A stretch of 64,000 nucleotides of DNA from Octopus vulgaris (Eukaryota): assembly GCA_951406725.2 (NCBI GenBank), contig OX597815.1, positions 98,022,001 to 98,086,000 on the forward strand. The letters are read 5' to 3'. Below, in pieces: positions 1,250-59,215 of the stretch. Numbering within the stretch: the stretch's first letter is position 1; each line of letters begins with the position of its first letter. The position numbers and the translations under genes were made by a program. The notes beneath the pieces were generated by a model. The model saw only the letters and a list, made by a program, of their open reading frames with translations, searched no databases and was not told the origin of the DNA.

Positions 1250-1738
1250 ATATAGGATAAAAAAATTTTTTCGGGAAAAAAATTTTATCAATGGCCAGCA
1301 TATCAAAAAATGCCTTTAAAGGTAAAATTTATACATAATTTACAAGATAAAGGCAGAAGAAAAATTCTAATGCCAGATACGCCGAAACAAAAAAAAAAAT
1401 TGTCGATAACCATTAAATTTATGCGTCTCGAAACAAACCGATAGAAATCTAAAAAATTCGTTATTACCGTATTGGTCCAATTTCGGGGTTAATTCACAAG
1501 AAATTTTCCCCTCTTCAGCAGCACATACGCGAGATATAAATGAAATACTTATTCATATCCACGGAAGAAGCAAGCACCAAGTCCCGAGCAGACTTAAGTA
1601 CCCCAAATATATCCAAATGGAAAAATCTTAGGCGCACCTCGAGACACGTGTGATTCGAACTAGAAACTTTCACAGAATTTTTTTGTTTCGGCGTATCTGG
1701 CATTAGAATTTTTCTTTTGCCCTTATCTTGTAAATTAT
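1250..1738 (-). mobile_element. Short non-coding PLE-type pLTR element: inverted repeat, internal hammerhead and one-sided tail, between TA tracts
   Basis: About 60-bp inverted repeat (1335-1395 vs 1678-1738, ataatttacaagataa..ggca.aagaaaaattctaatgccagatacgccgaaacaaaa). Hammerhead at 1465-1523. Extra ~85-bp tail on the left only. TA-rich microsatellite on both sides. Confidence 0.7.
1465..1523 (-). ncRNA. Minimal type I hammerhead ribozyme
   Basis: Minus strand: ugcug CUGAAGA gggg-(19 nt)-cccc GAAA uuggaccaa UA cggua. Core intact, 4-bp stem II, near-palindromic stem III, stem I with G-U pairs. Confidence 0.8.
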
Positions 1739-2528
1739 ATATATATATATATATATATATCAGTTTATGTATTTATATATGTGTTTGTGCGTATGTGCGT
1801 GCGCGCGCTTGTCTTTTGTCTTTAGATAGCTGAAAAGTGTTGGTACGATAGCAATGGTTTCATACCAGTAATTCGCAATTATTCAATGGTAGTTTTAATA
1901 AAACCGGTAGTTCAAACGTTTTCGTTACGCTTAAGTTCACTCCACTTACAAATATAGCTGAATCGTAAGTATTATTCAAGCTTCCATTGTAAACTTTCGC
2001 ATCGTGTTGACTGAATTCAACTGTTAAATGAAACTATTCACCCACTTACGTAGTGTTGAGTACTACAATATATATATGAATGTTTGTGGTGTATTGGTGT
2101 GTGTGTGTGTGTGTGTGTGTGTGTGTGCATCTCTGTCTCAGTGTGTGAGTGCGTGCAATGTTTAGCTTCAAACCTTTTAAGGATGTTCAATACTTGACCA
2201 ATCTTTAAATAGACAATTTATTTAATATATAGATTCTTAAAGACTCATAAAACACAGTTTTCTGGTCTCTCATGACCATCATTTGTTTAATTTCATTTCA
2301 ATATATTTTCTCATCTGATACTATTTTCATATTTTCTTTAGATTTAATATTTGATTTGTGAATAATTCTTTTGGATTATATTGATTAACACTGATAGTCG
2401 TCGTTCTTTTTTTCAATATATGAATTTATGTATATATATATATATATGTGTGTGTGTGTGTGTTTGTGTGTCTGTGTGCATGTATGTAAATATATATATA
2501 TATATATATATATATATATATATATATA

Positions 2529-2642
2529 GTGACGTATATTTGCCATTTGAATATGGCTAACACCTAAGGGTAAATGCTACTGTAGTTTGTAGCCCCAGGA
2601 GGATACCTCCTCCAGCTGGCTATAGACACACTTTCTGTGCTC
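2529..2642 (+). mobile_element. Truncated copy of the inverted-repeat element at 57372-57700, inside (TA)n
   Basis: Near-identical to 57372-57481 (acgtatatttgccattt.aatatggctaa...tgtagtttgtagccccaggagga.acctcctccagct.gctatagacacactttctgtgc). Confidence 0.85.
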
Positions 2643-4099
2643 TGAGATTTATCATATATATATATATATATATATATATATATATATATATATATATATA
2701 TGCATACATATGTATATACACACATATATGTATGTATATATATATATATATATATATATATATATGTATATATAAATACACACGCACACACACACATACT
2801 TGCTATTGATATTATAATGTTCTTTAATGTGCAGATTATGTCGTATAGGATGTTCCCTTATGCGTATATGTATAGCTGGTTACATACATATATACATACA
2901 CACACATACACATATGAACATATATATACATACATACATATATATATATATATATATATATATATGTGTGTGTGTGTGTGTGTGTGTGTGTATGTATATA
3001 TATGTGTGTTTGTGTGTGTGTGTGTGTGTGTATGTATGTATGTATGTATGTATATGTCCATTTGTGTATGTGTGTGTATCTAATTTCTTTGTGCAAACTT
3101 CTATTCATCTAAATTCTTCCCTTCTGGGCCTCGTTATACATCTATAAGTACCTTTGTTGCCATCCATCGCATAGGAATTTTTACCCTATATTCTCTTATT
3201 CTATTCAATTCTAAATTCTTTCGGCTACATTAAGGAAGCCTCTATTTTAAAGTAGTATTCCCACTCCATTTTTCACTATAAATTCTATAAGCTGCTCCAC
3301 ATACTTCTTTCGTTTGAACAGTTCCAACCTACTGAAACATACGGTTATCGAGTGCAAAGCAGTTAAACTTTATGCTAAATGAATGTAGCTTCATACATAA
3401 ATACGTACCTACCTAATTACCTACCTACCTACCTACATACATACATACATACATATATACATACATACAATATGATGGCTACAAACACGTGTTTGAGTAT
3501 TGCCATCGCCTGATCGAAAGTCTCACTCATACGAAGTTTACGACAAGCCTTTTTTGTAATAGGGTTTTTTTTCAAGCGATTCCTGTACATGATTTGTTTT
3601 TTTTATATAGTGGGGGATAGAATTACACAAATCCAATCCTACTCTCTGAACATAGACAACGTAAACTCGAAAAGAACTAGTCTGCATCATTGAATATTGT
3701 CAGTCGCAGGTTTTCTCTGAGAGTTTTTATCTCCTAGAGAAATGTTGTGACATCAGAAAGGCTTCTCACTCCCAATGGTCTAACCGCGTACCTGTACACC
3801 AACCCAGGTATTTCCACGTCTACGTGCATACATATATGCATACATACACGTGTACACATATTGCTGGATGGCCGTTGACTGCTTATGAACCCTTTGACAG
3901 GTCTTATTTTCATCCTGCAGGGTGTCCGACATTCCCCCTCCTCACCAAGCAAGCTTAATAATGTTGCCAGTTTAGTCGCTGATGATTCAAGAGGCTGTAC
4001 GGGGTTACATGTTACTAGGAGCTCCAAAGAGCGATCTGAAATACATGCATACATACATACACACATACATACATACATACATACATACATACATACATA

Positions 4100-4236
4100 C
4101 ATGAGTCTGCAGAAAAGTTCATAGGCTGACTAACATACTCTCATGGAATGAGACCAAATGAAGTTTATTTTATTAACATGCACCCCGTGGCGGTCAACAC
4201 ACTTTTTGCAGCAGTATTGCAGTATTTGTATCCCAT
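4100..4236. mobile_element. Possible end of a non-autonomous mariner-type DNA transposon
   Basis: Starts catgagtctgcagaaaagttc, resembling recalled TACGAGG..CTG..AAAAGTT mariner TIRs. No partner TIR seen. Confidence 0.3.
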
Positions 4237-56769: not shown

Positions 56770-57325
56770 ATGAAAAATGCATTAAATGCTACAAAACACG
56801 CAGGTAGGGCAGACACAAGAACCATAATTCTTCTTCAGTTATTGACTAAAAATACTAATACCCAGTTACGTGCCTTTAACGTTAAGACTAGGAACTTCGT
56901 ATATCGGCGGCAACCGCAAGATTTGTGTAGAATTAGGGCTTCAGCAAACAAAACAATTCAGGGTGGACGTACGAAAGTAAACAAATGTAATTTGAAACGA
57001 TAGACGTATATAATAATAAAAAGAGCCTTTCATGCAAACACGAGAATTATGGATTAACGCCTGGAAATCTTCAAATGGATATAAAAGCAGAATTAGTGAG
57101 AAAGGAGAAAAACTTGAACAGAAAATCTTGCGGGTGCCACCAGTATAAGTTCCTACTTTTATGGTTAAAGGCACGAAACTGGGTTTAAGTATTTTGGGTC
57201 GATTACTGAGGAAGAATTAAGGTCCTCGTGTCACTCCTAAGTGAACGTTTTGTAGAATTTAATGCATTTCTCATTTATGGAATAACTGAAGGCCATGTAT
57301 CCCGACTTTTGTGAACTGTAAGTTT
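56770..57325. mobile_element. Inverted-repeat element with a right-hand tail, between TA tracts
   Basis: About 155-bp diverged arms (56770-56924 / 57123-57274). No convincing ribozyme core. Confidence 0.7.
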
Positions 57326-57371
57326 ATATATATATATATATATATATATATATATATATATATATATATAT

Positions 57372-57700
57372 ACGTATATTTGCCATTTAAATATGGCTAA
57401 TCCCTAAGGGTGAATGCTACTGTAGTTTGTAGCCCCAGGAGGACACCTCCTCCAGCTTGCTATAGACACACTTTCTGTGCCCTATCAGTATTTGCAAAGG
57501 GAAGCCATCCTTCCCGTCTCCAACTTATGATACACACGGACTCGAGTTTGTGGGTATTGACCCGTCATCGACGTGTGACAATCCTGAGGCTACAAACTAC
57601 AGTAGCATCCACCCTTAGGGTTTAGCCATATTTAAATGGCAAATATACGTCACGATGTGTTGCAGCTACTGTTTATAACTCTCTCTAAGATTTATTATAT
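57372..57700. mobile_element. Inverted-repeat element with a hammerhead-shaped fold and a right-hand tail
   Basis: About 70-bp arms (57372-57440 / 57582-57651). Minus-strand fold at 57533-57577. Second copy at 2529. Confidence 0.8.
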
Positions 57701-58399
57701 ATATAATAGTCCTCTGAGAAAATGGTAGCGTGAATTGCTTTCATACTTGGGATGCTTGAATAATTTGGCCTCGGATACATAACGAACAAGCGATGCAGCG
57801 AGAAATATATTAATAATAACCGTTAACAGATATGAATGTATAAACGCCCTCATGCAAGCTGCATGGCGTATTTACACTCGCTCATACAAGCATCCATGGA
57901 GATGTAAGCATACATACACGTGTGGTTTGGTGTACACACGTTCACATATTGAATTAAACAGCTACGTAGGTTTTATAAGAATGGTGTGTGTGTGTGTATA
58001 TATATATATATGCATATATATGAAAAGGAAATCAGGTGATAGAAGTAACTCAGAGTGATCAGCGGCATGTATTTGAACAATGCAATATAAATTGTTGATT
58101 TATTGAAATAATATCAGTGTCTAATGACGATACAACAATCGTTTGGTGGCAATAGTGACAAGTTCCACATAAGAACGGGAGATATTTTGAAATATCGAAA
58201 TTATCTGAACTTGATATGCCGTTAAGAAAGAGGTAGTTTGATTGTCTGGATACAAGCTGACAGCTTTGAATATGTCTCTTCATGCATAAGCATCATCAGC
58301 ACATTAGTTGCTTTTTCTCCAGCAGAAAATTGTAAAACACGTTTAAAGCTTAAGTAATTTGCATAAAGGAAACGAAAATGAGCCAAGGGAAATAGCGTG

Positions 58400-59215
58400 T
58401 GGTATGTGTATTCTCAGAGGCTGGTATGGAGCCGTCTAGCTCTTTGGTGGTGTTGCCACATCTGGTCAGGTTTTTGCGGAAGAAGGATACTTTTGGTATT
58501 GAGATGCTCCTTAATTCAGATGTGGAGTGGTCGTGTTGTGCTACCAATGTAATGGTTCTTGCATTTGGAGCATCACATTTGGTATACCATGCGCGTACGT
58601 AAGTATATGACAGTGTCGCGAATGGGGAAGTCCGTTAGTGATCCGTACTGCTCTACTGCGTGTGACTACTTCCTTGATAGGTGTTTGCGAAGGAACGGTC
58701 CTGGATGGGTCAACCGAATGTCGTGTCCTTCCTTGCGAATAGCCTTGTAGATAGCAGTGGTGGTCTTCTCATTGAAGTGGGGAATCTTCAGGAAACAGGC
58801 TTTAGAGAGATCCTACTTGCGATGTTTAACTGTCCTATATTGCTGTATGGAGTTAGGAACGGACTAGGGTATCCGTTGGTCCCAAGTATCTTTAGGAACT
58901 GACTAACATATGCTTCCATGTCCGAATTAAGGAACATCTCTCTACCACCGCGTCTCCCTTCCGAAAACACCTGACCCGATGTGGGAACACCACGAAGAAG
59001 ATAGACGCCTACATACTTGTTTCTGGGAATAACACCGGCAATTTACTTATAAAAGAGGATCTGCTGATCCACCGCCTCAAAGCGAAAAATTAACAGTCGA
59101 TCGGAGTTGAGTCGGTGATTCCTTTGACAGTGTCCAACAGATCGTGAATGGCTTATAACAGCAGCTGAGAGTTATTCACACCAACTCTCGGACATCCGGC
59201 ATTAATTTAAGGGTG
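58400..59215. mobile_element. PLE remnant in inverted configuration: thumb-linker-GIY-YIG on minus, endonuclease C-terminus on plus
   Basis: Minus: FLKILGTNGYP, LKIPHFNE..IRLTHPGPFLRKHL, VYQM*CSKCKNHYIGSTTRPLHI*IKEHL. Plus from ~58917: HVRIKEHLSTTASPFRKHLTRC..NLLIKEDLLIHRLKAK/INSRSE. Ends at (TAC)n. Confidence 0.85.

Follow-up and report, generated by a model that had tools for sequence, protein, structure and literature searches.

The 64,000-nt stretch of Octopus vulgaris DNA analysed here (contig OX597815.1, positions 98,022,001 to 98,086,000; hereafter the window) is AT-rich, repeat-laden animal DNA, in which five short inverted elements, E1 to E5, carry an extra tail outside one arm only. 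We consider it probable that these elements are short 3' ends of several families of Penelope-like retrotransposons (Penelope-like elements, PLEs), and that the fold-back with its one-sided tail was made anew at each insertion, since copies of the E1 family turn round at different points. In support, PLE protein is encoded on the arms of a further element of the same inverted shape, E6. Most of the templates are likely to have been full-length coding elements of several clades: a Neptune/Nematis-type element for E6, Hydra-type elements for E2 and perhaps for E1, E5 and the hammerhead-bearing copies H21 and H23, and perhaps a Naiad element for E4. The pattern is real but matches the way in which PLEs are already known to insert; possibly the families have not been catalogued, and one of them may be a non-autonomous unit.

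Fold-back elements with a one-sided tail

E1, 1245..1743, minus strand: long arm 1245-1677 (minus strand) and short inverted arm 1678-1743; (TA)n on both sides.
E2, 24952..25139, minus strand: 57-nt arms turning inside the hammerhead core (at 25084, plus strand); 72-nt tail 24952-25023; (TA)n on both sides.
E3, 48320..49270, minus strand: arms of ~400 nt (88% ungapped); tail 48320-48428; junction at the 5' edge of the hammerhead.
E4, 56766..57326, plus strand: 159-nt arms (81%); 48-nt tail 57279-57326; no type I hammerhead.
E5, 57372..57699, plus strand: 69-nt matching arms (96%); 46-nt tail 57654-57699.
Second E5-family copy, 2529..2655, minus strand: located in (TA)n; a single arm, 94% to 57372-57483, with the final ~18 nt of the tail attached.
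E6, 58400..59218, strand unassigned: inverted PLE with coding remnants on both arms; ends in (CTA)n.
H21a, 21285..21508, minus strand: tail-less 3' end; hammerhead 21427-21485; (TA)n on both sides.
H21b, 21742..22054, minus strand: direct copy of H21a, 92% identical; hammerhead 21973-22031; 88-nt tail akin to the E1 tail.

Inverted repeats with a tail on one side are present at all five places where a first-pass annotation of this DNA had reported them. Arm identity ranges over 72-95% by blastn and 81-97% over ungapped columns: 95% for the E1 arms (1330-1395 and 1678-1743), 90% for the E2 hairpin (25026-25138), 328 of 374 ungapped columns for the E3 inverted repeat (48429-49269), 126 of 156 for E4 (56766-56924 and 57123-57278) and 66 of 69 for E5 (57372-57440 and 57582-57650). 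As drawn, the tails of E1 (1245-1329) to E5 measure 85, 72, ~109, 48 and 46 nt respectively, a wider range (46-109 nt) than the 50-85 bp reported earlier. Nine of the ten ends of E1-E5 lie within 10 nt of a (TA)4 or longer run, as compared to 3.4% of non-repeat positions, in agreement with the TA-type microsatellite noted there before; tail ends were placed partly by the TA run, and the five arm ends that are fixed by alignment all touch TA. Copies are very short in the window, between 127 and 1125 nt.

The five elements are largely unrelated in sequence, as had been stated, but E1 is akin to the pair at 21.3-22.0 kb (whole element, z of 10.7; tails, 5.9; the controls were mononucleotide shuffles, which are lenient towards AT-rich sequence) and E5 has its second copy at 2529-2655. 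Junctions differ between the two E5-family copies. The hammerhead cores of H21a and H21b are 546 nt apart and the spacer between them is not repeated; the two copies have their 5' end in common, yet are alike over just ~19 nt beyond the TA run. A common motif persists in the tails of E1 and H21b (21742-21829), the bodies of which have diverged, and this motif is a candidate for a protein-binding signal or a start signal for the reverse transcriptase (RT).

PLE insertions, as described in the consulted parts of PMC8557442, typically consist of an inverted 5'-truncated copy with a 30-40-bp tail at one end and a bias towards (TA)n. The elements of the window resemble the canonical endonuclease-bearing (EN+) PLEs of that work in their 5' truncation, inverted copy, tail at one end, partial tandems, type I hammerhead motif near the 3' end and (TA)n bias, the last seen both in the nine of ten ends and in the 3' ends of the E1 family, which abut (TA)n in 21 and 24 contigs. 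Terminal inverted repeats with TA flanks are also compatible with Tc1/mariner-type miniature inverted-repeat transposable elements (MITEs), in which case a TA-targeting DNA transposase would have moved the elements and the hammerheads would be there by chance. We regard this as very improbable. Instead of symmetric terminal inverted repeats and uniform copies, we find a tail outside one arm, variable junctions, and single-arm as well as direct-tandem copies; moreover, the hammerheads occur 50-fold above chance and E6 encodes a GIY-YIG domain. A TA target-site duplication would not be discernible within (TA)n. Such fold-backs could be mistaken for MITEs in annotation. The repeat annotation of O. 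vulgaris lists recently active MITE, unclassified terminal-inverted-repeat and unknown families (PMC13282606, Table 1), along with 31 recently active Penelope-like families (PMC13282606).

Penelope-like coding sequence

H23, 23310..23650, plus strand: hammerhead 23423-23478, with a frame carrying a Hydra-like C-terminal motif ahead of it (LNxxxELIxxC at 23362).
H46, 46451..47575, minus strand: 1.1 kb; GIY-YIG-like C-terminus 47438-47575 (last ~45 codons); decayed U3-A8 hammerhead (core 46550); (TA)n.

The minus arm of E6 (58922-58489) encodes an RT thumb, a cysteine linker and GIY-YIG, interrupted by three stops, and the plus arm (58914-59090) encodes the GIY-YIG C-terminus; the arms meet near 58914-58922. 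E6 matches a GIY-YIG protein of Octopus bimaculoides at 54% (E 5e-25), and the named relatives of this coding remnant are all proteins of that species. Hidden Markov model searches give E values of 3e-32 for the minus arm and 6e-12 for the plus arm. In the best bin of each arm, 75 of 127 PLE relatives match the minus arm and 79 of 127 the plus arm. These 127 were retained from 154 after dropping 24 MAP7-side matches, the SCO-spondin model P0006 and two pieces of the window, the representatives search having been run with all 958 aa of P0003, a gene model in which a PLE end is fused to a MAP7 protein. The O. bimaculoides gene models P0003 and P0006 both begin with PLE sequence fused to host genes (MAP7-domain and SCO-spondin-like, respectively) and are probably annotation chimeras. 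Neither of these E6 pieces had a match in Pfam.

All copies are truncated 3' of the PLE-type RT core. An RT domain and a DKG motif are present in P0004, a close relative of E6 (49% to the octopus query), which by the motif scheme in the consulted parts of PMC8557442 points to a Neptune/Nematis-type element. The Hydra clade is marked there by DKT and RWK motifs, a CxCX5C linker and no CCHH; E6 is likely not a Hydra element, because its relatives carry DKG and a longer cysteine linker.

A GIY-YIG domain behind an RT thumb and linker is found in E6 only, with H46 and H23 being suggestive. The PLE C-terminal motif at the end of the H46 open reading frame (ORF) occurs once in the window and 0 times in 50 shuffles, and the GIY-YIG-like piece gives weak alignments (best blastp E 0.011); H46 is likely a 5'-truncated PLE. 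The Hydra-like motif of H23 lies 66 nt ahead of the hammerhead and occurs twice in the window and four times in 100 shuffles. In contrast to the Hydra clade as published (PMC8557442, consulted parts), no Hydra RT or endonuclease domain is present in the window, and assignments to that clade rest on RNA motifs and one short peptide motif. E1 to E5 and H21 show no coding trace of the clade searched, as would be the case for elements that do not reach beyond the 3' untranslated part of a PLE, and equally for non-autonomous ones.

Between the likely ORF end of H46 and its hammerhead, five imperfect repeats containing GACGTCAT (46900-47265) carry CCAAT-like and GACGTCA boxes and appear to resemble a promoter/enhancer array. 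The H46 end resembles 28483-28524 over 43 nt; lacking colinearity with the hammerheads, this similarity is ascribed to chance or decay.

Hammerhead ribozyme motifs

Hammerhead of E1, type I, 1465..1523, minus strand: intact core CUGAAGA/GAAA, stem II of 4 bp and stem III of 4 bp.
Decayed hammerhead-like motif, 28370..28420, plus strand: core 28379; seen by eye, returned by neither scan and not above chance alone.

A strict descriptor of type I hammerheads (score of at least 11) identifies five motifs in the window, with cores at 1518, 21479, 22025 and 48848 on the minus strand and 23428 on the plus strand. By chance, 40 block shuffles yield 0.1 on average (maximum 1), and the reversed window yields 0. 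The hammerheads listed earlier at 21427, 21973 and 23423 are exactly motifs of the strict scan, while the one placed at 46499 retains only a decayed U3-A8 core (46550, minus strand) and lacks stem I. A relaxed scan, controlled with eight shuffles, gives 10 matches at score 8 against 3.5 expected and two matches of at least 11 in the reversed window, and it loses the cores 21479 and 48848; since it loses power in this way, the decayed motifs rest on their context. The previous figure of about ten motifs thus divides into approximately five sound ones and approximately five decayed ones.

The predicted hammerhead is intact in E1, H21a, H21b and H23, split between the arms in E2 and E3, and decayed in E5 and H46. 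Neither scan detects a type I hammerhead in E4 or E6. That four of the five elements carry a hammerhead core or fold, as first described, is accordingly true of E1 in full, of E2 and E3 only across both arms, and of E5 in decayed form. In E2, which has a U.U at the base of stem II and an ACAG/CUGU stem III, the 3' strand of stem I is intact just in the other arm, and in E3 (core 48848, with a 63-nt stem II region) stem I closes properly only across both arms. The E5 hammerhead (core at 57571, minus strand; motif 57533-57577) has three core changes and a relaxed-scan score of 9, a level reached by 1.9 shuffle matches, and like the motif at 46499 it does not exceed chance on its own; the long tail-less arm of E5, on the minus strand, begins ~10 nt upstream of this decayed core.

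Hydra hammerheads in the consulted part of File S2 of PMC8557442 have stem II flanked on each side by one additional unpaired base (often U.U), a stem III of 3-4 bp, a loop of 0-3 nt and CUGAAGA cores, and Penelope-13_HM of the same file carries an inverted truncated copy, so that its hammerhead occurs in both orientations. E2 and E1 have the same U.U base and 3-4-bp stem III. By eye, the overall likeness to the Hydra hammerheads and consensi extends to E2 and, in part, to E1, E5 and H21, and the E2 tail matches 10 of 11 letters of a motif in the tail of Hydra-2_Amil; E2 appears by eye to be Hydra-type. The unpaired base of stem II was initially considered unusual, but was dropped as such because it is standard in Hydra hammerheads and present in an axolotl retrozyme.

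In searches of the window with Rfam models, no hammerhead was listed at E<=10 in three sub-regions, and none is among the best 150 of 377 matches for the whole window, which are mostly microsatellite look-alikes. Twister is likewise absent from the matches listed in these searches. By free-energy folding, 0 of 10 motifs folded better than shuffles (z from -1.07 to +0.30). A hammerhead at 59160-59215 was not supportable, and another decayed hammerhead-like motif at 47697-47745 (plus strand) was returned by neither scan.

E4 contains GAAA..CUGAGGA boxes, in the reverse of the type I order, at 57175-57212 (GAAA..CUGANGA is expected 0.42 times per window by chance). Sequence 57133-57212 (plus strand) and the matching part of the left arm show a hairpin, followed by GAAAC and, 27 nt further, CUGANGA. 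By eye, the reversed order is also present ~75 nt from the 3' end of the published Naiad_Obim and Naiad_Ovul, the latter flagged 'HHR_half_core', so that the E4 boxes resemble the Naiad 3' ends in the consulted published sequences. The reversed GAAA..CUGANGA is possibly a conserved, unexplained RNA motif of Naiad elements.

The E1 family in public contigs

Public contigs were aligned to a single stretch, E1 alone, as a family test. Part of 300-1740 is contained in 20 public runs with four coded organism labels, and three runs contain half or more of its words; none of the 20 is on record as RNA. Contigs of the E1 family number 3381, 2822, 926 and 194 in four runs (three labelled organisms and one run, X16, which is RNA by guess only), and all 29 bins of the element are covered in each of the four. 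The family is abundant in the three labelled organisms. Metagenome scans with an E1 24-mer and with the common E1/H21 tail motif gave 0 loci.

The question whether copies share defined ends has a divided answer: the 3' end is fixed, abutting (TA)n, whereas the arm junction is variable. Tailed and tail-less arms meet at 1302|1682, 1362|1702, 1415|1679, 1593|1712, 1613|1706 and 1617|1712, each in one contig with a depth of 19-57 (contig depth and summed depth are not copy number), and a further junction is tabulated at 1433|1698. Two opposite-strand joints also occur in the family; the opposite-strand joint 1320|1677 in run X6 has a depth of 456 and is ambiguous. In the same run, 18 contigs continue past 1676 with sequence unlike the inverted arm of E1. 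The fold-back is not a fixed structure of the E1 family, because junctions differ among copies and members run past the E1 junction, although later deletions could account for some of the single joints.

These data bear directly on the strong form of the earlier proposal, in which self-inverted mini-elements of several independent families would multiply by copying of the entire fold-back; we consider this highly improbable. The joint 1320|1677, with ~10 times the depth of the single joints, may be multi-copy and would then speak for such copying, although a short direct duplication would explain it as well. The remaining listed junctions differ and are single, members of the family pass the E1 junction, and the E5 copies differ; a family of mini-elements with defined ends does not agree with variable junctions in E1 and E5, nor with the same-shaped E6 keeping GIY-YIG coding sequence. 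What stands of the first interpretation is that the elements are derived from and mobilised by PLEs, carry type I hammerheads and are not classical MITEs, and that at least one family is very abundant; a non-autonomous, retrozyme-like nature remains for the E1 family only.

Variants listed for the E1 family are located in loops and flanks, with none in the two catalytic boxes, and 1-, 2-, 4- and 5-nt insertions and deletions are frequent. With the letters that predominate at 1520-1524, stem I grows to 6 bp. The variant-free boxes together with the longer majority stem I suggest that the source elements kept their ribozyme under selection. The hammerhead is predicted to cut between 1470 and 1469.

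A proposed mode of insertion

In vitro, the protein of the anole PLE cleaves AT-rich sites on both strands and extends both, and reverse transcription of the anole PLE proceeds from two internal starts, the interval between them being the tail, on an uncleaved RNA template (consulted parts of PMC11167929). By analogy, the element protein would nick both strands of an AT-rich or (TA)n target, and two cDNAs would be primed from two neighbouring start sites on the RNA, one with the tail and one without. Both cDNAs would stop early and join head to head, giving an inverted repeat with a tail on one arm, as in E1-E5; joining in the same direction would give a partial tandem such as the tailed H21b with the tail-less H21a. 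Lying 55-530 nt from the 3' end, the hammerhead would simply travel with the copied sequence. Every long arm with a hammerhead reads across the predicted cut site, and the templates are therefore likely to have been uncleaved RNA.

Several observations weigh against the view that the elements are PLE 3' ends folded back anew at each insertion. With the PLE clade searched, neither a coding hit nor a parent element was found for E1, E2, E3, E4, E5 or H21. A protein database search with the H46 piece supported 0 of 5 candidates, and the motifs of H46 and H23 are short and were picked post hoc from the sequence. Tails here are 46-109 nt long as compared to 30-40 in the published PLEs, and six short motifs from the window elements have 0 matches in the consulted part of the supplement of PMC8557442, where line breaks could hide one. 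Five of the eight hammerhead-bearing arms begin within 30 nt upstream of the core, which suggests an excess over plain random truncation, though hammerhead detection biases the sample; stalling at the structure, transcription start there or the detection bias itself could account for it. In the E1 family, 5' ends recur at 1677-1687 and head-to-tail joints connect 1675-1678 to the tail end in two contigs of run X1 (depth 74.5 and 60.2) and one of X16 (15.1). Run X9 has one head-to-tail joint, to 1428. Summed depth is of the same order across 1416-1670, and internal deletions that arose later in a fixed palindrome could explain some of the single joints. The reference ends at 1677, which favours joints there, and loose ends were seen over 30 letters only, 399 further ones not being displayed.

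The joints just described would also fit if E1 and H21, foremost, were self-standing non-coding units of ~445 and ~545 nt, that is, non-autonomous PLEs or dispersed retrozymes cut by their hammerheads and inserted in trans by a PLE protein; this is a serious possibility, though we rather doubt it. Their transcripts would be tandems or circles, with the inversion still formed at insertion. Consistent with such units, all bins are covered in all four runs, small insertions and deletions are frequent, the catalytic boxes are free of variants while the loops vary, and the long arm of E1 (433 nt, non-coding throughout) is almost one ~445-nt unit. H21a and H21b are direct copies with cores 546 nt apart and a common 5' end, and non-autonomous PLEs and PLE-derived retrozymes exist (consulted parts of PMC8557442, PMC7229834 and bioRxiv 10.64898/2026.07.22.740005). 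However, the 18 X6 contigs continue beyond 1676-1687 with other sequence, one tandem joint is in another register (1617 to 1275), and the H21 copies are alike over only the short stretch beyond the TA run. Published Hydra 3' untranslated regions have ~120-220 nt from stop to hammerhead and one of them (TA)5 ~30 nt upstream of it, both by eye (consulted sequences); the 159 non-coding nt of E1 and the TA-bounded 5' end of H21 thus fit autonomous parents too. That the E1 family is a discrete unit of ~445 nt is possible but less likely than not. In one E1-family tandem joint, the tail end completes an 8-bp hairpin with the start of the next unit.

Relation to known elements and ribozyme load

Cervera and de la Pena (2014; PMC4209133, consulted part, which names no octopus) interpreted minimal hammerheads paired on opposite strands 100-700 bp apart as truncated PLEs. 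Shared with that description are dispersed single motifs (thousands in that work), the opposite-strand pairs, the U3-A8 variant (as at 46550) and the palindromic stem III. With its stable stem III of 4 bp, E1 differs and may be able to act as a monomer. Retrozymes have been described as PLE derivatives (consulted parts of PMC7229834 and bioRxiv 10.64898/2026.07.22.740005), and non-autonomous PLEs including MRC1 are present in Chlamydomonas (PMC8557442, likewise in part). The E1 family resembles non-LTR (long terminal repeat) retrozymes and non-autonomous PLEs as described there in its non-coding sequence, type I hammerhead, possible units of a few hundred nt, probable PLE derivation and dispersed monomers, and some head-to-tail joints are seen in it. 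In contrast to retrozymes, no array of like units is present in the window, and copies are mostly inverted. If E1 were a non-autonomous unit, it would join the retrozymes or non-autonomous PLEs already recognised. Specialists would find little surprising here, because the architecture, the ribozymes and non-autonomous PLE derivatives have already been described. The octopus families Hydra-1_Obim and Naiad_Obim/Ovul/Omin prefer (TA)n (supplement of PMC8557442, consulted part). Our search found no paper on octopus mini-PLEs or on these families; Repbase, Dfam and the Zenodo library of PMC13282606 lay outside that search and may catalogue them.

Five sound motifs in 64 kb correspond to ~80 per Mb, or ~2 x 10^5 in a 2.8-Gb genome, an extrapolation from one window, singled out for the trait and scanned with our own descriptor, which cannot carry an estimate. 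Published hammerhead totals are ~9,000 in Xenopus tropicalis, >6,000 in a coral and up to 120,000 in axolotl. It is tempting, though on balance unlikely, that the E1 family is a self-standing ~445-nt hammerhead RNA parasite of several octopus species, present in hundreds to thousands of copies, with tandem or circular RNA and with PLE-laid cDNA pairs that give MITE-like fold-backs. Were this true and the window typical, the E1 family together with its sister families would place octopus among the genomes with the highest known density of ribozymes, and natural junctions would be available by the thousand for testing the two-site priming model of PLE integration. The origin of tandem and inverted PLE insertions is stated as open in the consulted part of PMC8557442, and young, abundant families with a fixed tail and many junctions are good material for a two-start, two-nick model.

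Other features of the window

Directly upstream of H23, a 430-nt array of alternating A and T runs (22830-23260) is 72% self-complementary. A coding-looking stretch at 17010-17315 (plus strand) stands behind a pyrimidine/AG boundary, and it may represent the final exon of a host gene whose product ends in a netrin-type domain. Decayed coding remnants of LINE (long interspersed nuclear element) type and mariner type are visible by eye at 4280-4830, 12900-14900, 32300-33300, 55000-56060 and 62000-64000. The window also contains many copies of abundant repeats that are presumably short interspersed nuclear elements (SINEs), some of them arranged as inverted pairs, for example at 28708-29266.

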